From an uncultured Deinococcales bacterium (GTDB lineage Bacteria > Deinococcota > Deinococci > Deinococcales > JAAFIG01): a DNA stretch of 22,914 bases. Shown here in pieces: positions 1 through 22,914 of the stretch. The stretch's first letter is position 1; each line of letters starts with the position of its first letter. Position numbers and translations under genes: made by a program. The stretch lies in contig CAXTTL010000054.1 in assembly GCA_964247135.1 (NCBI GenBank), positions 1-22,914 on the forward strand, given 5' to 3'. The notes under the pieces are model-generated. The model was not told where the DNA came from, did no database searches, and saw nothing but the letters and a program-made list of their open reading frames with translations.

Positions 1-429
1 GGCGGAGGTCAGATCGGCATTGTGCTCAAGATCGAGAATCGCAGCGCCTTCGAGAACCTGCCCGAGCTGCTGCTGGCGGCACTCAAGCATCCACCCGTCG
101 CGGTCATGATCGCTCGAGGTGATCTTGGGGTCGAAATCGGCTTTGAGCGGCTCGCCGAGGTTCAGGAGGAAATCCTCTGGCTCTGCGAGGCTGCACACGT
201 TCCGGTCATCTGGGCGACGCAGGTGCTCGAGTCGCTCGCCAATCAAGGTCTGCCCACCCGCGCCGAGGTGACCGACGCCGCGATGTCGGCTCGAGCCGAG
301 TGCGTGATGCTCAACAAAGGACCGTATATTCTCGAGGCGGTCTCATTTTTGGACAACGTTTTAAAGCGCATGAAGTCGCATCAGAACAAAAAAACCTCGA
401 TGATGCGCCGTTTGAAGGTGACGAGCTGA
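1..429 (+). CDS. pyk: Pyruvate kinase, 5'-partial; short form ending after the catalytic barrel (Pyk2-like)
   Basis: Frame open from base 1 ([13 protein letters not shown]). Motifs [30 protein letters not shown] and AECVMLNKG are present. Stop TGA 427-429, with no C-terminal regulatory domain. Confidence 0.93.
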
Positions 430-434
430 ATCAA

Positions 435-597
435 TTCTCGAGTATCCTGAAATTCGTTACAACCACCAGTCACCACCCGAGGAGCAAAGAGCATGTCAAG
501 CGATGCCGTCTCAGAACCCTCTAAAACCTCGAGCGATCCCATTTTGGGACTTGGAAGCCAAGCCGCCCGTGCCAAGCTGGCTGAAGTCGGTCTGAAC
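435..597 (+). repeat. Repeat X copy 1: mgtA leader plus first ~35 codons
   Basis: Aligns with 3181-3330: about 18 mismatches in 150 aligned nt by hand, and copy 2 lacks 13 nt. Confidence 0.92.
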
Positions 598-3060
598 GAA
601 CTCTCGAGCGTCAAAACCCGTCCATTGTTGCTGCAATGGTTGTCGTACTTCGTGCAACCGCTCACGGCGATTTTGCTGATTGCCGCGCTCGTTTCTGGGA
701 TTTCGGGCGATTGGTTAAACGCCATTATTATTGTCGTGATCGTGGTCGGCAGCGTCGCGCTCGATTTTGTCCAGACGCAGCGCTCGCACGTGGCTGCCGA
801 ACGCCTTCGCAGCGTGGTTTCACCGACCGCCAGCGTCAAACGCGACGGCTCGTGGCTCGAGGTTCCGCGCAAAGAACTCGTTCCAGGCGATTTGATTCGA
901 CTTAAGGCGGGTGATCTTGTGCCCGCCGATGGGCGACTGGTTTCGGCGCGTGACCTGCACGTTCAACAAGCCGCCTTGACGGGCGAATCCATGCCCGTCG
1001 AAAAAAACGTGAGCGATAGTAAGCAAACACCAAATCTCGAGAATCCAGCCGATGCCAGCAACCTCGTCTTTGTCGGCTCGAGCGTGGTCAGTGGCAACGC
1101 CGAAGCGCTGGTCACCGCCACGGGTTCGCGCACCGCCTTTGGTGGCATTGTCACCAGCCTGGCTCGTCGCGCCCCAGAGACCGAGTTCGAGCGCGGCACG
1201 CGGTCTTTTAGTTTGTTCATTGTGCAGATTGTGCTGTTTTTGGTCTTGTTCGTCTTCGCGGTCAGCGCCTTTCACAAACGCGATCCGCTCGAGTCGCTGC
1301 TGTTTGCGGTGGCGCTGGCGGTCGGTTTAACCCCAGAATTTTTGCCGATGATCACGACCATCACGCTCTCCAACGGCGCGATTCGGATGTCCAAGCAAAA
1401 CGTGATCGTCAAGAACCTCTCGAGCATTCAAAACCTGGGACAGATCGACACGCTTTGCAGCGACAAAACCGGCACGCTCACCAGTGGCATCATGACGCTC
1501 GAGGGTCGGCTTGACCCGTTCGGCGCTGACAGCGACACGGTTTTTTTGCTGGCGTATCTGAACAGCCTGTTTGAAACTGGGATCACCAACCCGCTGAATA
1601 CCGCGATTCTCGAGACCAAAGACGCCAATCCGCTGGACCTTGCCATTCTCAAATCTGACCATCCAGACGTCAAACATTACACGAAACTCGACGAGGTTCC
1701 GTTCGATTTCGAGCGGCGTTGCGTGTCGGTGGTGGTCTCTCGAGCGACCCCTGCCGGCGAAGAACATCTGATGCTGACCAAGGGTGCACCGGAAAGCATC
1801 CTGAACCTTTGCACGGGTTTTGAACAAAATGGAGTTCAAACCCTGACTTCCGAAGCTCGAGCCAAAATTGAAACCGTGGTCAACAACCTTTCCGCTCAAG
1901 GCTACCGTGTGATTGCCGTGGCGTACCGCAACATGCCGCTCGAGGTACAACAAGCCGCGTACCATGCCAGCGACGAACACGATCTGGTGCTGGCAGGTTT
2001 TGTCACCTTCGTTGACCCGCCGCTGCCCGATGCCAAAGAAGTCTTGAACGCGCTGGCGGTGAAAGGCGTGACCGTCAAAATTTTAACGGGCGACAACGAA
2101 CTCGTGGCGCGGCACGTCTGCGAAACGGTCGGACTGAATGTTGGTAGAATTGTTCTGGGCAGCGAACTCGAGGGCATGACCGACACCGCACTGCTTCAGG
2201 TGGCAGACGCAAACACGGTCTTTGCCAGGGTTGCGCCCGCCCAAAAAAACCGCATCATCTTGGCACTCAAAGCCAGAAAACACGTGGTCGGTTACATGGG
2301 CGACGGCATCAACGACGCGCCCAGTTTGCACACCGCCGACGTGGGCATCAGCGTGGCGAACGCCACCGATGTTGCCAAAGACGCCGCCGATATTATTTTG
2401 CTCGAGCCTGGTTTGCGGGTGCTCCTGAGCGGCATTCTCGAGGGTCGTCGGGCGTTTGGCAACGTCATGAAGTACCTTCTCATGGGCACGAGTTCCAATT
2501 TTGGCAACATGTTTTCGATGGCTGGCGCGTCGTTGTTTTTGCCGTTCTTGCCGATGCTGCCGACCCAAATTCTGGTCAACAATTTCTTGTACGACCTGGC
2601 ACAAATCACCATCCCCAGCGACAACGTGGACCCTGCCTTCCTCGAGAAACCGCACCACTGGGACATCAGTTTGATTCGGCGTTTTATGTTCTGGATTGGT
2701 CCGATCAGTTCGGTCTACGATTTTCTGACTTTTTTTGTGCTCTTAAAAATCTTTGCCGCCAAAGAAGCCGAGTTTCACACGGGCTGGTTTGTCGAATCGC
2801 TGGCAACCCAAACCCTGGTCATTTTTGTGATTCGCACCTTCGGCAATCCGTTCCGCTCAAAGGCAAGTCCAGCGTTGAGTCTCACGGCGTTGGGTGTGGT
2901 GCTTGTCGGCGTGATCTTGCCCCTCACACCACTTGCCGAAATTCTTGGTTTTGTGCCTTTGCCAGCGCTTTATTTTGCGTTTCTGGGCGTGGCGACGCTG
3001 ACTTATTTGGGGTTGGTGGAACTGGTCAAACGGCGTTTGTTCGGGTCGGTCATGGGTTAA
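493..3060 (+). CDS. mgtA: Magnesium-translocating P-type ATPase (P3B)
   Basis: 855 aa. TGES, AVGLTPEFLPMI, CSDKTGTLT phosphorylation site, GDGINDAP, SSNFGN and FHTGWFVESL. GAGGAG RBS upstream. Confidence 0.95.
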   Translation: MSSDAVSEPSKTSSDPILGLGSQAARAKLAEVGLNELSSVKTRPLLLQWLSYFVQPLTAILLIAALVSGISGDWLNAIIIVVIVVGSVALDFVQTQRSHVAAERLRSVVSPTASVKRDGSWLEVPRKELVPGDLIRLKAGDLVPADGRLVSARDLHVQQAALTGESMPVEKNVSDSKQTPNLENPADASNLVFVGSSVVSGNAEALVTATGSRTAFGGIVTSLARRAPETEFERGTRSFSLFIVQIVLFLVLFVFAVSAFHKRDPLESLLFAVALAVGLTPEFLPMITTITLSNGAIRMSKQNVIVKNLSSIQNLGQIDTLCSDKTGTLTSGIMTLEGRLDPFGADSDTVFLLAYLNSLFETGITNPLNTAILETKDANPLDLAILKSDHPDVKHYTKLDEVPFDFERRCVSVVVSRATPAGEEHLMLTKGAPESILNLCTGFEQNGVQTLTSEARAKIETVVNNLSAQGYRVIAVAYRNMPLEVQQAAYHASDEHDLVLAGFVTFVDPPLPDAKEVLNALAVKGVTVKILTGDNELVARHVCETVGLNVGRIVLGSELEGMTDTALLQVADANTVFARVAPAQKNRIILALKARKHVVGYMGDGINDAPSLHTADVGISVANATDVAKDAADIILLEPGLRVLLSGILEGRRAFGNVMKYLLMGTSSNFGNMFSMAGASLFLPFLPMLPTQILVNNFLYDLAQITIPSDNVDPAFLEKPHHWDISLIRRFMFWIGPISSVYDFLTFFVLLKIFAAKEAEFHTGWFVESLATQTLVIFVIRTFGNPFRSKASPALSLTALGVVLVGVILPLTPLAEILGFVPLPALYFAFLGVATLTYLGLVELVKRRLFGSVMG

Positions 3061-3114
3061 CGCCTACTCAGAGGAATTTCTCGAGTCGTTCATTCAATGA
3101 TGCCCTGCCGTGCT

Positions 3115-3188
3115 CAAACCGTGAGTTCTGTCTCACCCCAAAACTGATAGGCTAGACCTCGAGCATTTGACCCAATTCTGTTCTCGAG
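3115..3188 (+). repeat. Repeat Y copy 1: duplicate of the murJ upstream/promoter region
   Basis: 3115-3164 matches 5707-5756 at 47/50 nt. Both copies continue to GTTCTCGAG at the same offset (ending 3188 and 5780). Confidence 0.92.
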
Positions 3189-3330
3189 TATCCTGAAATT
3201 CTTTGCAATCACCGATCATGACTCGAGGAGCAAAGAGTATGTCAAGCGATTCCATCTCAGAACCCTCTAAAAACTCGAGCGATGCTGCTTTGGGACCGCC
3301 CGTACAAAGCTGGCTGAAGTCGGTCTGAAC
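3181..3330 (+). pseudogene. Repeat X copy 2: frameshifted 5' remnant of mgtA
   Basis: RBS and ATG (3239) are retained. Reads MSSDSISEPSKNSSDAALG versus MSSDAVSEPSKTSSDPILG in mgtA. A 13-nt deletion shifts the frame to TGA at 3326-3328. Confidence 0.85.
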
Positions 3331-3541: not shown

Positions 3542-3647
3542 AGCTTAGAAATGCTACAGTGTCGAAATCGATCTCGAGCAATCCAGTTTGTTATCGTCCA
3601 CTCACGGATTTAACACGGTGAAAAGCTACGAATCAAGAAGGTCGAAT

Positions 3648-4322
3648 ATGAGCTTTCATCAGGAGGAAAGAGCGGGAGATTCGCCTTTTGCACGAACGAT
3701 CTTTCGTATTCGGTTCGAGGGCGACGGCTGTTTGATGGCGATTGCTGACGGCAGCCCAGACATAATCATCATCAAACAGCGCGGCGAATCGCGGATATTC
3801 TTTTCTGGGACGCGCACCAAAGCCGCACCTATTTTCTACAAAGAAGGCATGGAATTCATCGGGATTCGCCTCGCGGTGGGTGCGTTCCTGCCGCAGTTGC
3901 CGCCCGAAACCATGCTAGATTCGACGACCTTGCTGTCCTCAGCCACAGCTCGATCCTTCTGGCTGCACGACACCGCGTTGCCCCTGCCCGACTTTGAGGA
4001 TGCAGATGTCTTTATAAAGCGACTCGAGCGTCACGGTCTGATCACCCACGATGAAATGGTCAAGGCGACCTTACAAGAACAACCCAGCCCAGAATCGCTT
4101 CGGTCGGTGCAGCGCCGCTTCTTGAAAACCACAGGAATGACCCAAGCCTATATCCGGAAAATTGAACGGGCGCTTCACGCCGCAAACCTTCTACGGCAAG
4201 GTGTGTCCATCGCCGACACCATTTACCAGGCAGGCTACTTTGACCAGGCGCACCTGACCAAGGCGCTCAAACACATGACGGGTTACACACCGTCGCAACT
4301 TACCCCGCCAAGCAAGCCCTGA
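3648..4322 (+). CDS. AraC-family HTH transcriptional regulator (DUF6597-like N-terminus)
   Basis: C-terminal SLRSVQRRFLKTTG and AGYFDQAHLTKALKHMTGYTPSQ. ATG 3648 after AAGAAGG is preferred over TTG 3588. Confidence 0.9.
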   Translation: MSFHQEERAGDSPFARTIFRIRFEGDGCLMAIADGSPDIIIIKQRGESRIFFSGTRTKAAPIFYKEGMEFIGIRLAVGAFLPQLPPETMLDSTTLLSSATARSFWLHDTALPLPDFEDADVFIKRLERHGLITHDEMVKATLQEQPSPESLRSVQRRFLKTTGMTQAYIRKIERALHAANLLRQGVSIADTIYQAGYFDQAHLTKALKHMTGYTPSQLTPPSKP

Positions 4323-4328
4323 GTGGTT

Positions 4329-4411: not shown

Positions 4412-5575
4412 ATGAAGATCAATCCGTTCACCATCGACATTCCACAAACCGTTCTCGACGACCTGCGCGACCGTCTCGAGCGCACCCGCTTGCCCGATGA
4501 ACTCGCCAGTGTTGAAGGAATTTACGGCGTACCGCTCGGCTACATCAAACGCCTCGTCGCGTACTGGCTGGACGGCTACGACTGGCGCAAACACGAGGCT
4601 GGACTGAATCAATACCCGCAGTTCACCACCGAAATCGACGGTCAGAACATTCACTTCTTGCACGTGCGTTCCCCAGAACCTGGTGCGCTGCCACTCATTC
4701 TGACGCACGGCTGGCCCGGCTCGGTCGTGGAATACCTCGACGTGATCGGTTCGCTCAGCGATCCTCGAGCGCACGGCGGTGATCCGGCAAACGCCTTTCA
4801 TTTGGTGATTCCCTCGCTCCCAGGATTCGGGTTCTCTGGACCCACGCACGAAACCGGTTGGAACCGCTATCGGACCGCCACAGCTTGGGCGGAACTGATG
4901 AGGCGACTGGGCTATGACCGCTACGGTGCAGTCGGCAACGACGCGGGATCGATGATCAATCCCGAACTCGGACGGATCGACCCCGAGCATGTCACTGGGC
5001 TTCACGTCACCCAGATTTTCTCGTTCCCATCCGGCGCTCCGGCAGAAATGGCGGACCTGACCCCAGAAGAGCAGCGCGAACTGGAAACGCTGCAATGGTT
5101 CTCCCAGAACAAACTTTCCTTCAACACACTCATGTCCCAGCAGCCTCAGACGCTGGCGTTTGCGCTATCGGATTCTCCGGTAGGTCTGCTCGCCTGGAAT
5201 GCCCAACTCTTCGGGGATGAATTCGATGACGATTTTGTTTTGACCAACGTCATGCTTTACTGGTTAACCAATACCGCCGCGTCTGCGGCTCGCTTCTACT
5301 ACGAAGATGCCCACGCGACACCGCCGAGTGGACAGACTACAGTACCCATCGGTCTGGCGGCATTCGCGGGTGATTTCAGTGGCATCCGCCGTTTCGCGGA
5401 TCGGGATCATTAGAACATCGTTCATTGGTCAACGTTCAACCGTGGAGGTCACTTTGCCGCCCATAAAGTTCCCGATTTGCTCGTTGGTGATGTGCGGGCG
5501 TTCTTTGGGTCGTTACGCGCAATGCCGCCAACAAAGTCTGATGCGCCTTCCAAGCAGGCTCGAGATTCTATCTGA
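4412..5575 (+). pseudogene. Epoxide hydrolase (EHN + alpha/beta hydrolase) interrupted by in-frame TAG at 5411-5413
   Basis: HGWPGS, VIPSLPGFGFS, nucleophile elbow GNDAG and DSPVGL. After the TAG the same frame continues NIVHWSTFNRGGHFAAHKVPDLLVGDVRAFF (catalytic His motif) to TGA 5573-5575. Confidence 0.88.
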
Positions 5576-5706
5576 GAACCAAAATAAAACCAGCGCTCGA
5601 GAAGTTTCTGGGTTGTGAAAGCGCAAGAATTTCTCGAGCATCGCTTCCAGCAAATTGGGTTCTACGGTCTTGATGCTCGAGTTTGTAAGATTGCAGCGGT
5701 TTTTGC

Positions 5707-5780
5707 CAAACCGTGAGTTCTGTCTCACCGCAAAACTGATAGTCTAAACCTCGAGCGCTCGCATTTTGGGCGTTCTCGAG
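5707..5780 (+). promoter_or_regulatory. Repeat Y copy 2: probable murJ promoter with palindromic site
   Basis: GTGAG-N6-CTCAC (5713-5728) and extended -10 TGaTAGTCT (5737-5745), about 40 nt before the murJ ATG. The copy at 3145-3153 reads TGaTAGGCT. Confidence 0.6.
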
Positions 5781-5785: not shown

Positions 5786-7405
5786 ATGACTGAAACAACC
5801 ACCGAACCCATCATCGAAACCCTGCCGCCTCGCCGCTCGAGCGCCCGCAACATCCTGACCGTGATGAGCGGCACGCTCGCCAGCCGCGTGCTGGGTTTGC
5901 TGCGCCAAGCCTTGTTTAACCGTTTGTTCAATTCCGAAATCACCGATGCGTTTAACCTCGCCTACCGCATTCCAAACCTTTTCCGCGAACTGCTCGCCGA
6001 GGGGGCGTTGACCAACAGCATCATTCCGGTTTACAAATCTTTGCCACTCGAGGAACGCCCAAAATTTGCCGCCAGTTTAACAGGCGCTCTGGCGGGACTG
6101 AATTTGCTGGTGGTCGGCTTTGGCATTCTGCTCGCGCCGTTCGTGGTTGGACTGCGCATGGCGGATCACTCGAGCATCAATTTTGCGCTTGCCTTGCAAC
6201 TGACGCGCATCGTCTGGCCATTTCTGGCGGGCATTTCCTTCAGTGCCCTGGCGATGGCGCTCTTGAACGCCTCTGAACATTTTGGCAGTTCCTCGTTCAG
6301 TCCGTTGGCGTTCAGTGTGGTCTCGATCATCGGGTTTTTATTATTCCCAAACAATGCCGTCATGCTTGCCGTCATGACCGTGATTGGCGGTTTCGCGCAG
6401 TTTTTTGTGCAAATTCCCAGCCTGCAAAAATTTGGTCTGATGCCCAAACTCGAGTTTTCCTGGCACCCCGCGCTCGGTAAAGCCTTGGGTCTGATGGTGC
6501 CGTTTACCTTCACCACGGGCACTCGAGAGTTGCTGTCGGTGGTGTTGACGGGCATTTTGACCTCGTTTCCAATTGGCGCGATGACGGGTTTCACCAACGC
6601 CGACACCATATTCTTGCTGGCGTTGGGTCTGTTCGCGGTTTCACCCGCCCTGGCGTTTTACCCGCGCCTCGCCGAGTACAGCGCCGCCAAAGACTGGACC
6701 AGTTTCCGCGACACGCTGCTGTCCGCCTCGAGGCTCGTGGTGTTCTTGACCGCCCCCGTGACCGCCGTGATTTTTGTGCTCGCGCCAAGTGTCACGAGTG
6801 CCATGTTTGAACTGACCGGACGCATCAGCAACGACAAATTTGTTTTCACGGTGGCGGCACTGCCACCGCTCGCGCTCGCCATGATTACCTGGGGTTTAAA
6901 CCAATTTTTGGTTCGCGCCTTTTACGTGCGGCAAAAAACCCGTGAAGCCATCGTGATTAACGTCGCAGGCTTTTTACTCAACACTGCCATGTATTACGTT
7001 CTCTCGAGGGGCGCACCGACGGCGTTGGCGTTCAAGGGGGTCAGTCCCGCGCAGGCTCAAATTTTGTTGAACGATGCCCTCGCGCATTACCAACGCATGA
7101 ATTACGGCACAACCTTGACGGGTTGTTTGATCGTGATTGTTTACCTGGTGACGCTGACCGCGCAGGTGCAACTGAACTGGAAAAAATTGGTTGGACACAT
7201 CATCAAGGTTTCAATCGCGGCGCTCGCGGCAGCACTGGTTGCCAATTTCATCTCGAGCTTGATTCCCTTGCATCGCGGGTTTATCAACGGCGCACTGCAT
7301 TTGGGTTTGGCTGGCGGTGCGGCATTGGCGGTTTACATTGGGCTTTGCACGGTGTTGCAGGTGCAAGAGGTGGCAGGGTTGCGGCGCAGATTCTTAAAAC
7401 GTTGA
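5786..7405 (+). CDS. murJ: Lipid II flippase MurJ (MviN)
   Basis: 539 aa polytopic membrane protein. SRVLGLLR, DAFNLAYRIPNLFRELLAEGAL and RAFY motifs. Confidence 0.95.
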   Translation: MTETTTEPIIETLPPRRSSARNILTVMSGTLASRVLGLLRQALFNRLFNSEITDAFNLAYRIPNLFRELLAEGALTNSIIPVYKSLPLEERPKFAASLTGALAGLNLLVVGFGILLAPFVVGLRMADHSSINFALALQLTRIVWPFLAGISFSALAMALLNASEHFGSSSFSPLAFSVVSIIGFLLFPNNAVMLAVMTVIGGFAQFFVQIPSLQKFGLMPKLEFSWHPALGKALGLMVPFTFTTGTRELLSVVLTGILTSFPIGAMTGFTNADTIFLLALGLFAVSPALAFYPRLAEYSAAKDWTSFRDTLLSASRLVVFLTAPVTAVIFVLAPSVTSAMFELTGRISNDKFVFTVAALPPLALAMITWGLNQFLVRAFYVRQKTREAIVINVAGFLLNTAMYYVLSRGAPTALAFKGVSPAQAQILLNDALAHYQRMNYGTTLTGCLIVIVYLVTLTAQVQLNWKKLVGHIIKVSIAALAAALVANFISSLIPLHRGFINGALHLGLAGGAALAVYIGLCTVLQVQEVAGLRRRFLKR

Positions 7406-11394: not shown

Positions 11395-12828
11395 TCAATC
11401 ATCAGCCACCTCGAGTCTCGGTGCGGCTTCGGTGTTCAAGCCTTCATTCCACAAATCCCGAAACGATTTTTGGTTGGGAGCAGGAAAATCCCTTGTGGAT
11501 TGCCAACTTGAGAGTGGCGCAATGCCAAAGTTCGGCATGGTTTTGCCCCAGTTGACAAAGCGTCCCATTTTACTCGAGAGTCGGTACAGCGCAGGATTTT
11601 TCATCAAATTTTTGAAGGCTTTGATGCCCAAAGTTTCAACGGCTGGCATCAAGCCACTCGAAACGGCTCGAGTGCGTTGGGTGACGAGCATTTGCGGCAG
11701 CGGAATTTTAACGGGGCAAACATCGCCGCACGCCCCGCACAAACTCGAGGCGAAGGGCAAGCTTTTGGCTTCGGGCAATCCGAGCAAACCAGGATCAAGC
11801 ACGCTGCCGATGGGTCCTGAATATACCCAACCGTAAGCGTGACCGCCGAGTTGCTGGTAGACGGGGCAGGTGTTCAGACACGCGCCGCATCGGATGCAGC
11901 GCAGGCTGGCTCGCATCTCATCATCGGCAAGCACACTCGAGCGTCCGTTGTCGAGCACAACCAAATGAAATTCTTCGGGTCCGTCAACCTCGAGGTCACA
12001 TTTGGGTCCAGAAATCAAAGACACAAACACCGTGCTGCGCTGTCCCGTGGCAGCCCTCGGTAAGAGTTTTAAAAACACGCCAAGGTCGTGAATGTTGGGG
12101 ATGACCTTCTCGAGTCCCATCACGGCAATGTGTACTTTCGGGCGCGAGGTGGTCAGTCGGGCGTTGCCTTCGTTTTCGACGATCACGATGCTGCCCGATT
12201 CGGCGACGGCAAAGTTCACGCCCGAAATGCCAACGTCGGCGTTCAAGAAATCTTCTCTGATGATCTCGCGGGCTTTGCCTGCCAGCACATCGGCGCTCGA
12301 GCCGAGCGGCACGTCGTAAAGTTTATGAAAGAGTTCGTCCACCTCGCTTTTGGGTTTGTGAATCGCGGGTCCAATAATATGACTCGGGTGTTCACCCTCG
12401 AGTTGCAAAATGTACTCGCCCAAATCCGATTCGATCACCTTCATGCCAGCCTGCTCGAGCGCGTTGTTCAGTTCGATTTCTTCGGTGACCATGCTTTTGG
12501 ATTTGACAATCAATTTCGCGTTCGCGGCTTGGGTGATGCCTAAAATAATCTGGTTGGCATCCGCAGCATCATGCGCAAAATGCACGTGACCGCCCCGCGA
12601 TTCGATGTTGTCCGCCAAGCGCCCCAGGTAATAATCCAGATGCTCGAGCGTGTGGTCTTTGACGGTGGCGGCGTAGGCTTTTAAGGCTTCGACATCGGGC
12701 AGTTCGGCGTAGGCGGCGGTACGGTTTTGGTTGAAGGTTTCGGTGGCGCGTTTGACCGCCCCGCGAACGCCCGTGTTCTCGAGCGCTTTCAAGTGCGCCT
12801 GCGGAAAATCGTGAATGCTGATTTCCAT
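11395..12828 (-). CDS. lutB: Lactate utilisation Fe-S protein B (LldF/YkgF)
   Basis: KSKSMVTEEI, ESDLGEYI, ENEGN, CIRCGACLNTCPVY and SSLCGACGDVCPVKIP. Confidence 0.95.
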   Translation of the reverse strand: MEISIHDFPQAHLKALENTGVRGAVKRATETFNQNRTAAYAELPDVEALKAYAATVKDHTLEHLDYYLGRLADNIESRGGHVHFAHDAADANQIILGITQAANAKLIVKSKSMVTEEIELNNALEQAGMKVIESDLGEYILQLEGEHPSHIIGPAIHKPKSEVDELFHKLYDVPLGSSADVLAGKAREIIREDFLNADVGISGVNFAVAESGSIVIVENEGNARLTTSRPKVHIAVMGLEKVIPNIHDLGVFLKLLPRAATGQRSTVFVSLISGPKCDLEVDGPEEFHLVVLDNGRSSVLADDEMRASLRCIRCGACLNTCPVYQQLGGHAYGWVYSGPIGSVLDPGLLGLPEAKSLPFASSLCGACGDVCPVKIPLPQMLVTQRTRAVSSGLMPAVETLGIKAFKNLMKNPALYRLSSKMGRFVNWGKTMPNFGIAPLSSWQSTRDFPAPNQKSFRDLWNEGLNTEAAPRLEVADD

Positions 12829-16170: not shown

Positions 16171-16200
16171 CTCGAGTTTCCTTTCTGTTTTCCCTTGGAG

Positions 16201-16267
16201 GTAGGGGTGAACCTTCTTGACCATAATCATGCACCTGGCGGGCATGGTCGCTTGTGTTCACCCTTGC
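16201..16267. repeat. Degenerate GTAG-type REP-like hairpin
   Basis: GTAGGGGTGAAC...GTTCACCCTTGC outer stem (two G-T pairs) with inner GACCAT...ATGGTC. Confidence 0.55.
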
Positions 16268-16303
16268 TGACGGTGAATTTAATGATAGGTGCGAAATAAA
16301 TAT

Positions 16304-16828
16304 TCAATCTTCCCGATAAAAAAACGGGTCAAAAATTTGATACTCAGGATAGCCAAAAATGGTTGGAATCTTGGCTTCAAACGGCATTTTTTGCTTTAAA
16401 ACTTTCGGCTCAAGCAGCACAACATTTTGTTTCTCGAGTTTGTGTTTGATCTCTAAAATTACAGCATCCCAGTCGCCAGCAGGGAATTTGTTGAGATCAT
16501 CAGGGCGCAAAAAACCTGAGCTGCCACCGTGCTTGCTTTTTGTTTTGGTCATTGCACCCATCGCGGCGACGGGTGCAAGTTTGCACAGGTACAACGCAAT
16601 GCCTTCAATGGTGGTGCTCAAACCTGAGACCCGAGAGGATGAACCGTCTTTTTTGTAGCAAAAAACATCCAGGTATGAGGCGTAACCGCTGCCGTAACCA
16701 TCATCAGATTCAACCGCAATGTGCTTGGATCGCTCGAGGTCGTGCAGGGCATTCTTGATGGCGCTTTTTGAGCCACCTACATGTTTTCCCGCAATCAATT
16801 TCTCGAGCAATTCGTTGGTGATGTCCAC
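16304..16828 (-). CDS. Hypothetical 174-aa protein (YGSGYASY...IFDPFFYRED)
   Basis: GTG start 1 nt after the DeoR stop. Globular composition, and it fills the gap in the operon. Confidence 0.8.
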   Translation of the reverse strand: MDITNELLEKLIAGKHVGGSKSAIKNALHDLERSKHIAVESDDGYGSGYASYLDVFCYKKDGSSSRVSGLSTTIEGIALYLCKLAPVAAMGAMTKTKSKHGGSSGFLRPDDLNKFPAGDWDAVILEIKHKLEKQNVVLLEPKVLKQKMPFEAKIPTIFGYPEYQIFDPFFYRED

Positions 16829-16829
16829 G

Positions 16830-17612
16830 TTACACCCCAGTCACCAGCAGGCGAATGTCCGCCGCCTCGAGCGCTTCACGGGTTTCAAGATCGGGTTGAA
16901 GGTCGGTCACAATCACATCCACCGCGTCCATTTCGACAATCGTGTGCAACGCCACCCTCGAGAATTTGGTGTGATCCAAGAGCGCCACAATCAAACGCCC
17001 CGAGTGAATCAGTTGTTCTTTCATTTCGGTTTCGGGCAGGTGCGCGTCTGTAAAACCGGTTTGCGGGCTGAAGCCTTTGCTCGAGAAAAACACTTTATCG
17101 GGATGCAAGCGTTTTAACGTTCCTGTCGCGTGCGCCCCAACAAAAGACCGTGCTCGAGCGTGAAATTCACCGCCAGTCAGCGTGAACGGCAAGTTTAACC
17201 CCGCCAGAATCGTGGCGGCGTCAAGGCTCGAGACAATCGTGTTGACGGTTTTTGCGCCCAGCAATTGCGCGAGTTGCAATGTGGTGGTGCTGGCATCGAG
17301 CGCGATGGTATCACCGTCTTGGATTAACTCGAGTGCTTTGCGGGCAATGCTGGATTTCGCCTCGAGATGCTCGTTGATGCGCAAACTGTAAGCAACCTCG
17401 TCGTTGGCTTTGCTTTGCAACCTTGCACCGCCGTGCACCCGCTCGAGCAGCCCTTGTTCGGAGAGTAAATCCAGATCGCGGCGCACCGTCATTTCGTGGA
17501 CGCTGAGGTGCTGCGCGAGTTCTTTGGTGCGCACAATTTTTCGCGCCAGCGCTTGCTGCAAAATAAATTCGTGTCTCGAGCGCAGGGCGGCGGCAGGATC
17601 GACGGTGTTCAT
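16830..17612 (-). CDS. DeoR/GlpR-family transcriptional regulator (probable rhamnose repressor)
   Basis: HTH SVHEMTVRRDL, RVHGGA, IALDASTT and LLDHTKF. ATGA overlap with the upstream permease. Confidence 0.93.
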   Translation of the reverse strand: MNTVDPAAALRSRHEFILQQALARKIVRTKELAQHLSVHEMTVRRDLDLLSEQGLLERVHGGARLQSKANDEVAYSLRINEHLEAKSSIARKALELIQDGDTIALDASTTTLQLAQLLGAKTVNTIVSSLDAATILAGLNLPFTLTGGEFHARARSFVGAHATGTLKRLHPDKVFFSSKGFSPQTGFTDAHLPETEMKEQLIHSGRLIVALLDHTKFSRVALHTIVEMDAVDVIVTDLQPDLETREALEAADIRLLVTGV

Positions 17613-18610
17613 GATTTTGTCCCTGGTTTAACAAATCGTTTGATGATTGGCGGCAAGGCGATGGCGAGCACCATCAGGATACCAATAATGATCGAGGCAA
17701 CGATGCCTGGAATGTTGATCAAACCCATGCCGAACTGAATCATGCCCAGCAATAAAACTGATAGCACCACGCCCAAAATGTTGCCCGTGCCACCGGCGAT
17801 GCTCACGCCGCCAAGCACGGTCATGGTGATGACATCGAGTTCCCAGCCTTGGGCGATGTTGGGTCGGGTGGTGGTGATTCTCGAGGTGAGAAACACGGCG
17901 GACAAACCTGCGAGCATTCCCGAAAAAGTGAACAATGCCAGACGGTAACGTGCAACGGGAATTCCAGAAAAACGTGCCGCATCGGGGTTGTTGCCGATGG
18001 CGTACAGGTTTCTCCCCCAACGGGTTTTTGCCAAGAACACGCCGACGCAAACCGCCAAGATCAAAAAGGTTACGAAAGAAATCGGTAAGTTCGGCAGTGC
18101 ATAACCTTGCCCCAAATTACCAAAAGATTCTGGATAGGCGGTCAAGGCGGTGTCACCCAAAACCGCTTGGGCGATGCCGCGAAACAATGACATCGTGCCG
18201 AGCGTGATGGCAATGCTTGGCACGGCAAACCGAACCACCAGAAAACCGTTTAAAAAACCGCAGACTGTTCCCGTACCAACACCAACCAGCAGCAAGACGA
18301 GCCAATCCGCGCCCGATTGCGCCGCAAAGCCCATTAAGAGCGAACTGAGCGCGATGATTGACGCCACCGAGAGATCAATCTCGCGGCACAAAATCAAGAG
18401 TGCCATGCCGAGCGCCATAATCCCCTTCTCGGCAAAAATCGGGGTGGCATCACCGAGGTTGGCGGCATCCCAGAAATACTCGGACAGCCGACCATTCAAG
18501 ACCATCACGATTGCCAGCATGACCAGCAGCAGCAATTCCCAGCGCAGCAGCAAACTCGAGAGTTTAAACGGTGCTCGAGCCTGAACGGGGGTGGAACGTT
18601 GCTCGGTCAT
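17609..18610 (-). CDS. rhaQ: Rhamnose ABC transporter permease
   Basis: LLRWE, EIDLSVAS, YAIGNNPDAARFSGI and GWELDVITMTVLGGVSIAGG. Confidence 0.85.
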   Translation of the reverse strand: MTEQRSTPVQARAPFKLSSLLLRWELLLLVMLAIVMVLNGRLSEYFWDAANLGDATPIFAEKGIMALGMALLILCREIDLSVASIIALSSLLMGFAAQSGADWLVLLLVGVGTGTVCGFLNGFLVVRFAVPSIAITLGTMSLFRGIAQAVLGDTALTAYPESFGNLGQGYALPNLPISFVTFLILAVCVGVFLAKTRWGRNLYAIGNNPDAARFSGIPVARYRLALFTFSGMLAGLSAVFLTSRITTTRPNIAQGWELDVITMTVLGGVSIAGGTGNILGVVLSVLLLGMIQFGMGLINIPGIVASIIIGILMVLAIALPPIIKRFVKPGTKS

Positions 18611-19578
18611 GCTCGCCTCAAAATGGTTTTGCCTTTAACTCGAGATGCGCCCTGGTTGACGATGGCAGCGACCAGAATCGCAACGCCGACGATGGCGGTT
18701 TGCCAGAACGGTGAGACGTTGACGACGGGCAAGGCGTTGTAAAGTGTGGTCAGGAAAATTGCGCCGAGGGCTGTGCCGAGCACGCTGCCGACGCCACCGG
18801 CAATGCTCACGCCACCGAGCACACAGGCGGCAACGACTTGAAGCTCGAAGCCACTGGCAATGTCGGTGTTGGCGAGCGCAAACCGTGCCACCCACAGCAC
18901 GCCGACCAGACCAGCGATTGTGCCTGAAAGGGCGTACAGCGCAAACAAACGCCGTGTCTCGGGAATGCCCACGTATTTCGCCGCGTTCGGGTTGCCGCCA
19001 AGCGCCCGAATTTCACGTCCGAAACGCGATTGATGCACCAAAAACCAACCCAGCACCAGCGCGATCAAACTGACCCACTCGAGTCCGGTGATGCCCAAGA
19101 ATCTGGCATTTGGAAAATCCACCAAACCGACCGGAAGCTCGTTGGCGTTGATCCACTGCCCGCCAGAAACCACGTAGGTCAAACCACGGTAAACGCTCAT
19201 CATGCCCAGGCTGGCAACAATCGGTGGAATCTCGAGGAAGTTGATGAGGCTGGCGTTGATGATGCCGAGCACCAAGCCCGAAAGTGCGCCCAAGGCAAGC
19301 AGGGCAAGCACTGGAATGCCTGGCACGGCTTTGGCGAGCAATCCCACCAACATGCCCGAAAGCGCCAGGTTCGCGGCAACGGACAAATCGATGCCTCGAG
19401 ACATGATGACCAGCATTTGCGTTAACGCCAGCGCGATCAACAGGGCGCTGTCGTGCCAGATGGCGTCGAAGGTTTTAAAGCTGATAAACGACGGCGCACG
19501 AATGCCCACGCCAATCAGCAGCGCCACCAGCAAAGCCAGCAAAATCAATTCGCGTTGATAGGTTTTCCAGATTTTCAT
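18607..19578 (-). CDS. rhaP: Rhamnose ABC transporter permease
   Basis: GIDLSVAANLAL, GGNPNAAKYVGI and GFELQVVAACVLGGVSIAGGVG. Confidence 0.85.
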   Translation of the reverse strand: MKIWKTYQRELILLALLVALLIGVGIRAPSFISFKTFDAIWHDSALLIALALTQMLVIMSRGIDLSVAANLALSGMLVGLLAKAVPGIPVLALLALGALSGLVLGIINASLINFLEIPPIVASLGMMSVYRGLTYVVSGGQWINANELPVGLVDFPNARFLGITGLEWVSLIALVLGWFLVHQSRFGREIRALGGNPNAAKYVGIPETRRLFALYALSGTIAGLVGVLWVARFALANTDIASGFELQVVAACVLGGVSIAGGVGSVLGTALGAIFLTTLYNALPVVNVSPFWQTAIVGVAILVAAIVNQGASRVKGKTILRRA

Positions 19579-21086
19579 GCGACCAACTCCCGCGTGTTGC
19601 CTGCCGCCTGTGACACGATTTCCTCGGCGGTGGCAACTCGAGCCTCAAATTCTGCCACAAGGCGCCCTTCGCGCATCACCAGAATGCGGTCGCTCATGTT
19701 CATAATCTCAGGCAGTTCGGAACTGACCAGAATCACCGCCAAACCGTTTTGCACCAGTTCGCTCATGAACGAATGCACGGCGGCTTTCGCGCCAACGTCG
19801 ATGCCTTTGGTCGGTTCGTCCAGAATGATGACTTTGGGGTTGGTGGCGAGCCATTTGGAGAGCACCACTTTTTGCTGATTGCCGCCCGAAAGCTCAGACA
19901 CATTCTGCTCGAGGTTCGCCGCACGAAGCGACAAGCGTTCTGCGAGTGGCATCGCCATAGATTCCTCTTTACCCCGATTGAGAATATTCCCAATGCTCGA
20001 GAGGCTGGCAAGGGTGATGTTGTGCAAAATGCTCATCGGTAATATCGCGCCTGCAATCTGGCGGTCTTCGGGAACGTAGACCAAACCGTTTTTGACCGCA
20101 TCGGCGGGAGATTTGATGCTCACGGTTTTGCCATCGATCAAGACCGAACCCGTTGACGCAGCATTCAACCCGAACACCGCCTGCATCACCTCCGAGCGCC
20201 CCGCGCCAACCAAACCGTAAAAACCCAGAATCTCGCCTTTACGAACGCTAAAATTGATGCTCGAGAATTCGGTGGGGTGCTCAAAATTCTTGACCTCGAG
20301 CATCACGTCCCCAGGTTTGGACTCGAGCTTTGGGAAGAGTGCCCCGACCTCGCGCCCCGCCATCAGACGAATCAAATCCTCGCTCGAGGTATCGGTGATC
20401 TTGCCCGTTCCAACGTTTTTGCCGTCGCGCAAGACCACGTAACGACTCGCCAGCGCAAAAACCTCATCGAACTTGTGGGTGATTAATAAAACCGCCTTGC
20501 CCGCGTCACGAAGTTGCCGCACGATACGGTACAAATCCTCGATCTCGGCTTTGGACAGCGACGCGGTGGGTTCGTCCATGATCACCACGCTCGAGTCTTG
20601 GGACAACGCCCGCGCAATTTGCACCAAATGCTTTTGCGCCACGCTCAATTCCTTCAACGGCGTTTCAGGATCAATCTTCGCATCCATCTTCTCGAGCACG
20701 GTTTGGGCTTGCTCGAGCATGGATTTCCAATTCACCAAACCGCCCGCAAAAAACTTGGACGTGACTGGATGATTTCCGACAAATAAATTTTCCGCCACCG
20801 AAAGTTCATCGAACATCACGGTTTCTTGATGGATCGCGCCAATTCCCGCCTTCGCCGCATCTTGGGGACTCGAGAGACGCAAGGTTTCATTGTTTAACAC
20901 GATGCTGCCCGAATCGGGTTGGTAAATGCCTGTCAAGATTTTCACCACCGTCGATTTGCCCGCGCCGTTCTCGCCGATCAGCGCCAGAACCTCGCCTTTG
21001 TTCAAACCAAAAGACACGTCGTTCACGGCTTGCGTCGCGCCAAAACGTTTATTCAAATTGTTGATTTGCAAAAAATGATTGGTCAT
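19575..21086 (-). CDS. Sugar (CUT2) ABC transporter ATP-binding protein with two ABC domains (RhaT in Rhizobium nomenclature)
   Basis: GENGAGKST, MDEPT, GLVGAGRSE, LSGGNQQKV and LDEPTKGIDVGAK. Confidence 0.95.
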   Translation of the reverse strand: MTNHFLQINNLNKRFGATQAVNDVSFGLNKGEVLALIGENGAGKSTVVKILTGIYQPDSGSIVLNNETLRLSSPQDAAKAGIGAIHQETVMFDELSVAENLFVGNHPVTSKFFAGGLVNWKSMLEQAQTVLEKMDAKIDPETPLKELSVAQKHLVQIARALSQDSSVVIMDEPTASLSKAEIEDLYRIVRQLRDAGKAVLLITHKFDEVFALASRYVVLRDGKNVGTGKITDTSSEDLIRLMAGREVGALFPKLESKPGDVMLEVKNFEHPTEFSSINFSVRKGEILGFYGLVGAGRSEVMQAVFGLNAASTGSVLIDGKTVSIKSPADAVKNGLVYVPEDRQIAGAILPMSILHNITLASLSSIGNILNRGKEESMAMPLAERLSLRAANLEQNVSELSGGNQQKVVLSKWLATNPKVIILDEPTKGIDVGAKAAVHSFMSELVQNGLAVILVSSELPEIMNMSDRILVMREGRLVAEFEARVATAEEIVSQAAGNTRELVA

Positions 21087-21129
21087 AAAATTGGTTTCTC
21101 GAGTTTGTGATTTTCATTTATGCTCGAGC

Positions 21130-21165
21130 AAAACGGAGACGGTTTAAAAACGAAGACCGTCTCCG
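21130..21165 (-). terminator. Intercistronic hairpin / weak intrinsic terminator between the binding-protein and ATPase genes
   Basis: CGGAGACGGT-N12-ACCGTCTCCG, followed by TTTT on the minus strand. Confidence 0.6.
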
Positions 21166-21212
21166 AAGGTGTCTCTCTCGAGCTTTTGAAAAGTAACAGT
21201 TGCTTTCGTTCC

Positions 21213-21381
21213 CTCTCATCCCCGACCCGTCTTGCCCTTAAAGCAGCACCTTCGGGCTTGGGCGCTTCTCTCCTCGGAGAGAAGGGAGTTTCATTGATTT
21301 CTAAGAAGCCGAAACATTGCTTTTCAGTCCATCTTTCGCGCAGCGAGAGAGGGTGACGAGCCTCGGCGAGTCGGGTGAGAG
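21213..21381. repeat. Second, modified pair of the CCCTC...GAGAAGGGAG REP-like family
   Basis: CTCATCCCCGACCC...TTCTCTCCTCGGAGAGAAGGGAG (21213-21288, with an insertion of ~37 nt) and a degenerate inverse arm ending GGGTGAGAG (21328-21381). Confidence 0.7.
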
Positions 21382-21385
21382 CTTC

Positions 21386-21461
21386 AGGGGCGAGAAGAAC
21401 AATTCCGTGTGCTTATGCGTTGAGGTTTCTCGAGCTTGAGCGCATTGCCTTGCGCCCCTAC
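21386..21461 (-). repeat. GTAG-type REP directly after the rhaS stop
   Basis: Minus strand GTAGGGGCGCAAGGCAATGCGCTC, 3 nt after TAA. Partner arm CGCCCCT at 21386-21392. Confidence 0.7.
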
Positions 21462-21464
21462 GGT

Positions 21465-22475
21465 TTAAAAAGCTTTGGCAAACTTATCGATGTTGTCTTT
21501 ATTGAACGTGTACGGATCACCCATTGGCGCCTCGAGGTTGGCGTCCAAGGTGATGGTGCCCATGCGTCCAATGCTGACTTTCGCGCCCACTTTGCTGGTT
21601 GCTTTGCGGGTGGCGAATTGGTAGGCGGCGTACACGGCGGAGTAACCCAGGTCAATTGGATTCCAAAGCGCGAAGGTGTCCACCGATCCGGCTTTGACGT
21701 AGGAAATCATTTCGCTTGGCAAGCCAAGACCGGACACGAAGACTTTACCGACCAGTTTTTGGTCGATCACGGCTTTGGCGCTGGCGGCAATGCCGACGGT
21801 GGTTGGGGCGATGATGCCTTTCAGGTTGGGGTATTTGCTGAACAAGCCCAGTGCCTCGCGGTAGGATTTGTCGGATTGGTCATCGCCGTAAACGGTGTCC
21901 ACCAGCTCGAGACCACTGTACATGGGGTCTTTGAGGGTGTCTTTCATGGCGGCGATCCAGGCGTTTTGGTTGGTTGCTTGGGCGGTGGCAGACAAAATGG
22001 CGATTTGACCTTTGCCGCCGATGGTTTTACTAATCATTTCGATTTGCTTGCGTCCAATCAGTGCCGTGTTGGACGGATTGAGGTGCATCAAACGGGCTTC
22101 TTTGGCAACGCCTGAATCCCAGGAAATGACCTTCACACCTCGAGATTTGGCTTTTTTCAGGGCGGCAACCACGGCGTTCGGGTCGTTGGCGCTAATGGCA
22201 ATGGCGTCCACTTTTTGCGCGACCAGCGAGTTGATCAGCTCGATCTGACCTTCTGCGGTGGCGGTGGTGGGTCCGGTGTAAATGACTTCGACGTTTTTCA
22301 GTTCTTTGGCGGCTTCAAGTCCACCGTCGCGGGCGGCTTCAAAAAAACCATTGCCGAGGCTTTTCACGAGCAATGCAATCTTGTAGGTTTTGCCTTGGGC
22401 ACTCGTCATACTCAGGCTTGCCACGGCGGCAGCTCCAAGCAATGCCATACCAATCATCATTACCTTGCGTTTCAT
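21465..22475 (-). CDS. rhaS: Rhamnose ABC transporter substrate-binding protein (Rhizobium-type RhaS, not the E. coli regulator)
   Basis: Signal peptide MKRKVMMIGMALLGAAAVAS, ALLVKSLGNGFFEAA, ATATNQNAWI and LWNPIDLGY. GGAGGAG RBS before ATG 22475. Confidence 0.9.
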   Translation of the reverse strand: MKRKVMMIGMALLGAAAVASLSMTSAQGKTYKIALLVKSLGNGFFEAARDGGLEAAKELKNVEVIYTGPTTATAEGQIELINSLVAQKVDAIAISANDPNAVVAALKKAKSRGVKVISWDSGVAKEARLMHLNPSNTALIGRKQIEMISKTIGGKGQIAILSATAQATNQNAWIAAMKDTLKDPMYSGLELVDTVYGDDQSDKSYREALGLFSKYPNLKGIIAPTTVGIAASAKAVIDQKLVGKVFVSGLGLPSEMISYVKAGSVDTFALWNPIDLGYSAVYAAYQFATRKATSKVGAKVSIGRMGTITLDANLEAPMGDPYTFNKDNIDKFAKAF

Positions 22476-22598
22476 GTTCACGCTCCTCCACAGTGTTGAA
22501 ATCAAAACATGCAATGTGACCCCTCGAGTTGGCTCGAGTGATGTGAAAGTGGGGAAACTTTCGCACACGATCATGTTCGTTTCTGGTACTGTTTGAAT

Positions 22599-22628
22599 AC
22601 CTTAGCGCGTTGGTGGTTCAAATGTCAA
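22599..22628 (-). promoter_or_regulatory. Sigma70-type promoter of the rha operon
   Basis: Minus strand TTGACA (22628-22623), 18 nt, then TAAGGT (22604-22599). Confidence 0.65.
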
Positions 22629-22734
22629 ATCTCAAAATTGGGTATCTTTTCACGTTTGATACACGAAAAAACGCTCGAGAGAGATGCCTTCCTTAAGGGT
22701 TTTGATGTTGTGCGTTTGATGTTCGTTCCATAAA

Positions 22735-22914
22735 TTACTTTGGAATTTTGTATTCCTTCTCAATCCCATACTTTTGCACAAGCTTTTGACCAACGCGGGC
22801 AAGCCGTTCTCGCCAACTTTGCGGCGCGAGCACCTCGAGCGAGTCGATAAATTCGACCAAAATTTCCCAGGCGAATGCCTCGGCAACCAGATTGAGTTTG
22901 CCGCAGATAAAACC
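22735..22914 (-). CDS. 3' end of a gene running off the window; WCX-like C-terminus of a WYL-domain regulator
   Basis: Hand translation GFICGKLNLVAEAFAWEILVEFIDSLEVLAPQSWRERLARVGQKLVQKYGIEKEYKIPK*. LEVLAPxxxRE resembles the WCX 'EVLxPxxLR' motif. Not in the ORF track. Confidence 0.6.
   Translation of the reverse strand, partial: GFICGKLNLVAEAFAWEILVEFIDSLEVLAPQSWRERLARVGQKLVQKYGIEKEYKIPK

Follow-up and report, generated by a model that had tools for sequence, protein, structure and literature searches.

CTCGAG is a highly iterated palindrome in an uncultured family of Deinococcales

Highly iterated palindromes (HIPs) have puzzled biologists for some 30 years, almost always as a peculiarity of cyanobacteria. 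Here we describe the hexamer CTCGAG as such a palindrome in a 22,914-nt stretch of DNA from an uncultured Deinococcales bacterium (assembly GCA_964247135.1, contig CAXTTL010000054.1; hereafter the window, meaning the whole stretch analysed), in the genome to which it belongs, and in related genomes. In the accessible sections of the cyanobacterial literature, HIP1 is GCGATCGC and the alternate HIPs are GGCGCC, GGGATCCC and TCGATCGA (PMC4390886; PMC5861425); HIP1 occurs at 300–2,700 copies per Mb and the alternate words at roughly 1,000–2,000 (PMC4390886), and every abundant HIP is reported to be accompanied by a methyltransferase that recognizes it (Elhai, 2015, PMC4390886). As far as its available text goes, a 2026 paper proposes HIP1 as a broad uptake sequence (PMC13756078). 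The available portions of Blow et al. (2016, PMC4752239) report from Nocardia an orphan CTCGAG methylase that is conserved in the lineage, with the motif clustering near dnaA.

Like HIP1, CTCGAG is a short palindrome rich in GC; its huge excess extends to every reading frame and to non-coding DNA, codon usage does not account for it, and the word is lineage-wide and conserved at orthologous positions. It also has two more marks of a HIP, a copy number of about 1,000 or more per Mb and strong over-representation. With the alternate HIP GGCGCC it shares a length of six letters, and HIP function is still debated. It differs from HIP1 in phylum (Deinococcota), in its word (67% GC), in its density (~6,700 per Mb), and in measurably inflating one dipeptide of the proteome; unlike for the HIPs of Elhai, no cognate methyltransferase could be tied to CTCGAG here. 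This is a real HIP-type element outside cyanobacteria, in another phylum, with another word, and denser than HIP1. We are nearly certain that CTCGAG is a highly iterated palindrome of this uncultured Deinococcales family, with ~34,000 copies per genome that fall in all frames, are conserved, and alter both codons and amino acids. A preliminary description of the window had proposed a HIP1-like palindrome, and the proposal holds: the signal is genome- and lineage-wide, acts at the level of DNA, and is conserved.

Other short words with comparable behavior are the uptake signal sequences (USS) of Pasteurellaceae and the DNA uptake sequences (DUS) of Neisseriaceae, which are thought to spread by molecular drive. 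Such signals are 9–12 bp long, non-palindromic, present about once per kb and graded in their positions, and in the classic systems prophages are poor in them. Like them, CTCGAG is a short word shared by a whole family, occurs both between genes and in every frame, and is scarce in foreign DNA, and an uptake channel gene is present; unlike them, it is palindromic, 6 bp long, present at ~7/kb and all-or-none, and a resident phage is fully enriched. A 6-bp palindrome at 6.7/kb falls outside the core definition of USS and DUS (asymmetric, 9–12 bp, ~1/kb, graded). In Escherichia coli, Dcm and Vsr create a sequence-specific repair bias that raises CCWGG, the methylase target; the effect is small and tied to one deaminated position. 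The mechanism favored below shares its logic with Dcm/Vsr and with Elhai's model of HIP1, but the CTCGAG excess is 25–35-fold and needs six positions, Vsr was not found in the 16 family genomes searched, and the C5 methylase is not universal.

The Nocardia orphan methylase reads the same word, and the available text of that paper does not describe genome-wide hyper-abundance (PMC4752239); unlike in Nocardia, no corresponding conserved enzyme was found in the Deinococcales family. CTCGAG is also the word of XhoI/PaeR7I restriction–modification (R-M), yet restriction normally leads to target avoidance and here the target is hyper-abundant. No earlier description of CTCGAG hyper-abundance was found in a literature search with most subscription journals and REBASE outside its coverage. 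The accessible part of Elhai (2015, PMC4390886) does not mention CTCGAG, that of Xu et al. (2018, PMC5861425) mentions neither Deinococcus nor Thermus, and that of the main text of Blow et al. (2016, PMC4752239; the supplementary tables lie outside this statement) mentions neither Meiothermus nor Thermus. The Meiothermus ruber genome paper (PMC3035268) does not mention CTCGAG or the terms palindrome, methylation, and restriction.

Abundance and specificity of CTCGAG

A hand count in the preliminary description had given about 156 CTCGAG in the window, and the exact number is 156, from a first site at 113–118 to a last at 22834–22839, with a mean spacing of ~147 bp and with sites in genes on both strands as well as in intergenic DNA. 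Dinucleotide-preserving shuffles of the window (n = 100) contained 5.77 ± 2.29 copies and at most 12, and 0 of 100 reached 156. By crude open reading frame (ORF) calls, on which the gene content and phase counts of the window rest, 133 sites are coding and 23 lie outside genes (8.2/kb vs. 6.6/kb within genes). The coding sites are divided among all three phases (67, 38, and 28, see below), and the described occurrence in every frame and between genes stands. In 200 synonymous shuffles that keep the protein and the codon usage of each gene, the window coding sequences held 13.0 ± 3.4 sites, with a maximum of 22, compared to the 133 observed. Two clusters had been pointed out as well: all six sites given for 5559–5780 were recovered, while of five given for 3080–3269 four lie there (3080, 3158, 3183, and 3222) and the fifth is at 3274–3279. 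The main features are as follows.

113..22839, no strand: array of 156 CTCGAG, from counts with dinucleotide and synonymous shuffles
113..118, plus strand: example of phase nCT CGA Gnn (28 of 133 coding sites)
226..231, plus strand: example of CTC GAG (Leu-Glu), the commonest phase (67 of 133)
528..533, plus strand: example of phase nnC TCG AGn (38 of 133), inside the P-type ATPase ORF
3080..3279, no strand: intergenic cluster of five sites (3080, 3158, 3183, 3222, 3274), between the P-type ATPase ORF (493–3060) and an ORF at 3588–4322
5559..5780, no strand: cluster of six sites (5559, 5596, 5633, 5676, 5750, 5775), upstream of a MurJ-family ORF (5786–7405)

The second cluster lies outside the crude gene calls; an unannotated 103-aa ORF (5307–5618) overlaps its first two sites.

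The window is contig C54 of its own genome, here called G000 (5.09 Mb in 386 contigs, 84% complete, 52.7% GC). CTCGAG is the top hexamer by count in G000, with 33,925 copies, or one per 150 bp and 6,660 per Mb. Its observed/expected (O/E) ratio is 24.8 from base composition (order 0) and 35.2 under an order-1 Markov model; it is only 1.24 at order 4 because the 5-mers themselves carry the signal. Three possible refutations had been named in advance, and none holds; the one that turns on a protein-preserving shuffle is taken up below. Confinement to one contig is contradicted by all 297 contigs of at least 5 kb, which carry the word at 2.6–10.5/kb. A general excess of TCGA is rejected as the cause: TCGA not within CTCGAG is near expectation (20,685 vs. 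~19,800), and the fifteen other NTCGAN hexamers have 121–2,188 copies each. The 18 one-letter variants of CTCGAG have 96–2,216 copies each, vs. ~1,200–1,500 by composition, and GAGCTC, which has the same composition as CTCGAG, has 0 copies. One-letter variants gain nothing, and a reader of the word therefore needs all six letters; such stringency is that of restriction and modification enzymes rather than of the usual DNA-binding proteins or uptake receptors. Around the 33,925 sites, from position -10 to +16, the bases occur at about background frequency; the exceptions are weak preferences at two pairs of positions, -1/+6 (G 0.39 at -1, C 0.38 at +6) and -3/+8 (A 0.37 at -3). With flanks this close to random, CTCGAG is not part of a longer repeat, and a longer unit, such as a dispersed repetitive extragenic palindrome (REP) or miniature inverted-repeat transposable element (MITE), was rejected since the copies have no extended shared flanks.

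That the excess merely follows from composition, from the usage of codons or amino acids, or from a family of dispersed repeats is refuted, and we give this view practically no weight. CTC and GAG are common codons, and high-GC viral contigs do reach 3–7 sites/kb from codon bias alone, with GAGCTC equally common. However, the 4,233 crude genes of G000 hold 27,960 CTCGAG, compared to 3,867–3,966 after synonymous shuffling and 1,626–1,684 after shuffling of codon order, an excess over the protein-preserving shuffle that is 7-fold for the genome and 10-fold for the window. Non-coding DNA of G000, crudely delimited, is denser in the word than coding DNA (7.38 vs. 6.52/kb), and the dinucleotide shuffles, the zero count of GAGCTC, and the near-random flanks speak against a by-product as well. 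The earlier assertion that amino-acid or codon preference cannot explain the excess survives the synonymous shuffle in both the window and the genome.

Effects on codons and proteins are large. In G000, 17,075 of 22,200 Leu-Glu dipeptides (76.9%) are written CTCGAG, vs. 4.9% from context-free codon usage (odds ratio 64), and the motif is present at 6,466 of 13,914 synonymous opportunities in the phase nnC TCG AGn (46.5%) and at 4,419 of 10,179 in the phase nCT CGA Gnn (43%). Expressed as a scaled advantage, the pressure at synonymous Leu-Glu sites comes to about ln 64 (roughly 4). Leu-Glu is also the most over-represented dipeptide of the proteome (O/E 2.40) and Glu-Leu is at 1.02; therefore, the DNA word has altered protein sequences besides codon choice.

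Density is flat along genes (~6–7/kb), is 8.3–8.7/kb just upstream of starts, and peaks where constraint is least, at 12/kb in the first 30 bp past stops. Only 1.1% of 5-kb windows have fewer than 3 sites/kb. The pressure acts on all DNA resident in the lineage, with constraint as its only limit. The motif-poorest long genes have a GC content of 0.26–0.45 and include a reverse-transcriptase–protease fusion, a STAND NTPase, and an AAA_16 ATPase; these foreign-looking genes are typical accessory or defence cargo. Sites also repel each other at short range, as the density of site pairs is 0.43 of its plateau at 6–20 bp and is back to 1 by ~65 bp. The variance/mean ratio of counts is 0.81 in 250-bp windows, with over-dispersion from 1 kb upward, and no periodicity was found in G000 besides the 3-base coding period and the short-range repulsion. 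Two 2017 freshwater metagenome runs are the only public runs with part of this DNA, with word shares of 0.15 and 0.11.

Some further observations on G000 concern other words and a single gene. GRGCYC is nearly lacking (GAGCTC 0, GGGCCC 1, GAGCCC 6, and GGGCTC 4 copies, vs. ~1,400–1,700 expected for each), and the window holds none; neighbors such as GAGCAC are normal, with 2,135 copies. GGCC has 380 copies (O/E 0.02), and many six-letter palindromes have fewer than 50 (CGTACG 5, GGATCC 7, CCGCGG 11, CAGCTG 15, GCATGC 17). This scarcity of words looks like heavy restriction avoidance, of BanII and HaeIII type among others. At G000:C4:51606-53234 (locus L144), a 542-aa protein fuses a reverse transcriptase to a trypsin-like protease; its gene has a GC content of 0.35 and zero CTCGAG and is probably a recently acquired defence-type retroelement.

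Conservation, spread, and phages

Conservation between species was followed at loci syntenic with one gene of the window, using its own sites and those of its neighbors.

11395..12828, minus strand: LutB-like gene, anchor for the syntenic loci L001–L005

The five syntenic loci, from other metagenome-assembled genomes (MAGs) labeled “Deinococcales bacterium,” have 6.7–7.7 sites/kb; LutB loci sampled from four other phyla have 0.05–0.4. In each of four species at ~85% DNA identity, 81–86% of the window sites are intact, vs. 44–48% of other hexamers, and a fifth species, at 77% identity, retains 60% of the sites vs. 22% of other hexamers. At 61 positions one or more of five species has a site; 32 of these positions are common to all five and 16 to four. 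In codons that keep their amino acid, 92.1% of 570 comparisons inside sites agree at the third base, vs. 71.6% of 11,142 outside, with four related species pooled and the comparisons not independent of one another; synonymous differences are 3.6-fold rarer inside sites. The same holds codon by codon, with third-base identities inside vs. outside sites of 89.7 vs. 50.2% for CTC, 95.3 vs. 67.5% for GAG, 96.7 vs. 66.4% for TCG, and 91.5 vs. 55.2% for CGA. Losses in single lineages (n = 16, a small sample from five species) are mostly C-to-T or G-to-A transitions.

The spread of the motif was surveyed in 151 genomes of the order, with GAGCTC as the same-composition control and with rounded genome sizes. 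Families and genera are given by our own labels (f, g).

Own family f1, five genera, 16 genomes: CTCGAG 12,028–35,442 (4.3–6.7/kb); GAGCTC 0–25 in 13 of 16
Family f5, genera g13, g22, and g24, 16 genomes: CTCGAG ~1.4–3.4/kb, 2- to 43-fold over GAGCTC
Family f2, genera g6, g21, g31, g36, g23, g32, g27, and one of two g14, 14 genomes: CTCGAG ~0.7–2.6/kb, 5.7- to 121-fold over GAGCTC
Genus g9, 22 genomes: CTCGAG 1,455–2,537, no excess; GAGCTC 1,113–2,680
Genus g7, 38 genomes: CTCGAG 26–942, depleted; GAGCTC 10–1,024, depleted
Allomeiothermus silvanus plasmid pMESIL01, first 50 kb: CTCGAG 63; GAGCTC 15
Thermus thermophilus pTT27, first 50 kb: CTCGAG 45; GAGCTC 55; TCGA O/E 0.40
Deinococcus radiodurans MP1, first 50 kb: CTCGAG 8; GAGCTC 5

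Density is extreme throughout the 16 family genomes and intermediate in some genera of f5 and f2, with no excess in g9 and depletion in g7. After synonymous shuffling of coding sequences (CDS), the A. silvanus plasmid retains a modest excess (54 vs. 29.6) and pTT27 is depleted (39 vs. 77.3). The extreme density is a property of the uncultured family, and the form seen in the Meiothermus group is much milder. The mention, in the preliminary description, of CTCGAG-rich sequence in Meiothermus is right for a weaker form, as in pMESIL01 and in the Meiothermus phage described next; the Thermus and Deinococcus replicons are without excess. In Thermus replicons and phages TCGA is strongly avoided (O/E 0.40 in pTT27, 0.09 in P23-77, and 0.25 in Riverbug), which fits TaqI-type restriction in that genus and is opposite to the Meiothermus-group pattern.

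Phages track their hosts in motif content. Meiothermus phage MMP17 (33 kb) has 87 CTCGAG vs. 8 GAGCTC (2.6/kb, O/E 8.1), and its crude CDS hold 76 sites vs. 27.4 ± 4.1 after shuffling. Thermus phage Riverbug has 23 CTCGAG (O/E 1.4) vs. 35 GAGCTC, a TCGA O/E of 0.25, and 23 CDS sites vs. 29.6 after shuffling. The two are ~70% identical across their structural genes, and of the 25 MMP17 sites that fall in aligned blocks (7.5 kb), Riverbug shares 2. Phage DNA thus acquires the motif status of the host lineage within the divergence time of these phages. From their genes both look temperate, with an integrase and a LexA-like regulator in Riverbug and Mu-like and excisionase-family genes in MMP17, and the result therefore does not separate chromosomal from replication-linked processes. 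A scan of viral contigs for motif triplets returned mainly high-GC contigs in which GAGCTC is equally common, and was uninformative on the viruses of the family itself. MMP17 (L296) has one further feature, an annotated Vsr-like very-short-patch repair nuclease that adjoins a D12-class N6-adenine methyltransferase at 26062–27388. This methylase is 37% identical to the C320 gene of G000 and 40% to one from a trait-negative genome; Vsr usually partners C5 methylases, and the pairing is unusual on that basis.

Candidate enzymes and other genes

A resident XhoI-type R-M system was rejected. The XhoI-family endonuclease (PF04555) was not found in G000 or in 18 other family genomes, and only 1 of 31 genomes overall, G021, has it. 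There it adjoins a convergent beta-class methylase (L099, G021:C1:68000-84000, 6897–8794) that has no close homolog in G000. G021 itself still has 3,937 CTCGAG vs. 1,606 GAGCTC, and the presumed XhoI-type target is not avoided in it.

About a dozen recognisable DNA methyltransferase ORFs are present in G000. Ten of them were profiled on two five-genome panels of trait-positive and trait-negative genomes, and none was common to all positives, in a set that left aside a 1,499-aa gene of contig C112 (in a low-density island), a weak TIGR01177-like ORF (C4:28577-29977), and rarer families. The candidates rejected because they do not occur in all trait-positive genomes, named by contig, are C36 (beta-class), C14 (C5), C207 (with a fragment at the end of contig C4 counted as part of it), C178, C320, C169, C21, and C192. 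Family profiles (PF07669, PF01555, PF02086, and PF00145) run over 31 genomes revealed no universal methylase class. No beta-class match (E <= 1e-8) was found in the single-contig G011 or in G003 and G015, and no C5 methylase in G008, G015, G019, G027, and G030; D12 and gamma classes are present but heterogeneous or patchy. ORFs of ~500 aa with PF07669 were dropped as candidates, as they prove to be diverse HsdM-like subunits. One D12 ortholog group (~280 aa; loci L124–L131) occurs in G002–G005, G007, G011, G016, and G019, with identities of 88–92% within genus, 55–70% between genera, and 51–55% to G019, which belongs to another family. These identities track taxonomy and so suggest vertical inheritance, possibly of a solitary enzyme. 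A tblastn search did not detect the group in G000, and for most genomes of g5 no match of this type was listed.

A motif screen for unrecognised amino-methylases found a 514-aa enzyme on contig C51 (G000:C51:9055-10596 = L154:4056–5597). It has no Pfam family over threshold, only a weak sub-threshold match to RrnaAD, and its predicted structure (pLDDT 78, pTM 0.72) matches full-length M.BseCI (E 3e-20), CamA (~1e-16), and M.TaqI (~1e-12), which are DNA adenine methyltransferases. Its start overlaps by 4 nt with a 217-aa ORF that matches no family, and downstream lies a helicase gene; the enzyme may be part of an R-M pair. The enzyme occurs in 9 of 16 family genomes searched, 7 of them with substantial matches, and in 0 of 20 genomes of g13, g22, g24, g6, and g21. 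It was rejected as the cause, since it is patchy and congeners with and without it are equal in CTCGAG density.

Genes for repair, recombination, and uptake were searched as well. The preliminary description had suggested an orphan methyltransferase with patch repair, and gene content lends this no support: no XhoI-family endonuclease was found in the family, no methylase ortholog group profiled is universal, and none of the 16 family genomes searched yielded a Vsr-family nuclease, against 10 of 151 in the order. With C5 methylases not universal either, a product of Dcm/Vsr-type very-short-patch repair was rejected. RecC was found in 0 of 151 genomes and AddB in 0 of 151 over the family cut-off, with weak partial matches only. 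ComEC is present in 30 of 31 genomes searched, trait-negative ones included, and does not discriminate. Two other systems suggested in the preliminary description, a nucleoid protein and an uptake signal, gained no specific support.

As for the other contents of the window, a ~50-nt element at 3109–3168 and 5707–5756 has two genomic copies, both in the window and 94% identical. Each lies upstream of an ORF (starting at 3588 and 5786) and has an inverted repeat (5-nt arms, 6-nt spacer) and a terminal CTCGAG; the element may be a shared promoter or operator. No Rfam family matched in the window, this element included. By Pfam, the region 8428–22574 encodes an aminotransferase, the LutB-like lactate-utilisation protein, a sugar ABC transporter (permease, ATPase, and periplasmic binding protein), and two xylose-isomerase-like TIM-barrel proteins, one of them rhamnose-isomerase-like, which suggests a locus for heterotrophic sugar and lactate catabolism.

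Possible origin and significance

All-letter stringency and action on all resident DNA lead us to favor, tentatively and at somewhat under even confidence, an intracellular fixation bias for intact CTCGAG over every one-letter variant. Most likely, mismatch repair or gene conversion would be biased at the site itself. A reader as specific as a restriction enzyme, perhaps guided by adenine methylation that interchangeable methyltransferases supply, would resolve heteroduplexes toward the CTCGAG-bearing strand; lost sites would be restored and new ones fixed, and retained DNA, including resident phage, would drift toward the motif. Biased repair or conversion, rather than selection at each site, is what we infer from the pattern, as would be any role of methylation.

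Several observations weigh against such a bias. The main one is the lack of any conserved enzyme, given that no methyltransferase ortholog group is common to the trait-positive genomes, that the XhoI-family endonuclease and Vsr were not found in the family genomes searched, and that congeners with differing methyltransferase sets are equal in density (~6.3–6.7/kb). Weak selection at each site predicts the same conservation and codon effects, which therefore do not separate drive from selection, and the short-range repulsion is more naturally a protein footprint or a matter of diminishing returns. In the five species, a small sample, single lineages show 16 losses and 6 gains, and 5 of these gains are set apart from the other species by two letters or more, which simple one-step conversion does not predict. 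Since both phages look temperate, processes limited to chromosomal DNA stay compatible with the phage result.

We consider it unlikely, if worth keeping in view, that the sites are bound by an abundant, dimeric architectural or DNA-processing core protein, with a small benefit per site and weak selection as in codon bias. Such a protein would be present alike across lineages and differ in specificity, which would explain why presence/absence profiling came up empty. A palindrome suits a dimeric reader, ~34,000 sites per genome is within the copy-number range of nucleoid proteins, the sites are strongly conserved, and repulsion up to ~60 bp without longer periodicity fits a footprint or diminishing returns. 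On the other hand, one-letter variants bring no partial benefit, which is unusual for architectural proteins, no candidate protein was found, and there is no clear reason why phage would match host density. A methylation-independent “signature,” in which a conserved core protein would read CTCGAG about every 150 bp, as stringently as a restriction enzyme, and so organise the chromosome or tell resident from incoming DNA, also strikes us as unlikely. The spread of the motif by biased transformation, as a “self” signal for DNA uptake or recombination like USS and DUS, we regard as quite unlikely. The motif is family-wide across species, in all frames and between genes, foreign-looking genes are poor in it, and ComEC was found in 30 of 31 genomes; recent work on HIP1, in its available text, argues for a role in uptake or transformation (PMC13756078; bioRxiv 10.1101/2024.09.10.611283). 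ComEC is nonetheless equally present in trait-negative genomes. In length, symmetry, density, and all-or-none character CTCGAG departs from uptake signals, and the Meiothermus phage, at 2.6 sites/kb, falls among the intermediate genomes, unlike the prophages of the classic systems, which have few uptake signals.

Selection of the sites as targets of one conserved, solitary CTCGAG methyltransferase, with Dam-like housekeeping duties in replication, in the choice of strand for repair, or in regulation, would match the enzyme found with every abundant HIP in the accessible text of Elhai (2015, PMC4390886) and the conserved orphan methylase that reads CTCGAG in Nocardia, as far as the available text describes it (PMC4752239), and G000 is rich in methyltransferases, including the one with the predicted M.BseCI/CamA/M.TaqI-like fold. 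It is improbable in our view, because that enzyme is patchy and density is indifferent to it, and because the ten panel-profiled candidates and the four families over 31 genomes contain no universal ortholog group, in a search bounded by incomplete MAGs (57–94%), by specificity that is unreadable from sequence, and by rarer methylase families left unprofiled. Highly improbable is a Chi-like protective “self” marker that halts a degradative helicase–nuclease, with motif-poor DNA being destroyed. Mimicry by resident phages and the motif poverty of newly arrived genes would follow from it, but RecC was found in none of the 151 genomes and AddB in none over its cut-off, and CTCGAG is palindromic, whereas Chi sites are asymmetric and oriented.

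CTCGAG provides an independent case of a HIP, in another phylum, with a different word, and several-fold denser. Its graded series, from absent in a Thermus-like genus through intermediate in the cultured Meiothermus group to extreme in the uncultured family, is a natural comparative system for the cause, and the phage pair indicates that the word accumulates within the divergence time of related phages. The Leu-Glu effect indicates that a DNA-level signal can measurably reshape a proteome. In practical terms, CTCGAG density can serve as a sharp criterion when these genomes are binned or searched for recent acquisitions, and XhoI, if the sites are unmodified, would cleave this DNA at intervals of about 150 bp. 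Should no dedicated methyltransferase be involved, the prevailing view of HIPs, which centres on methylation, would have to be revised. Were the signature reading true, the family would have a sequence-based form of self-marking of a kind not described in bacteria, and a pressure that rewrites three quarters of Leu-Glu codon pairs, more than doubles Leu-Glu content, and is copied by resident phages.

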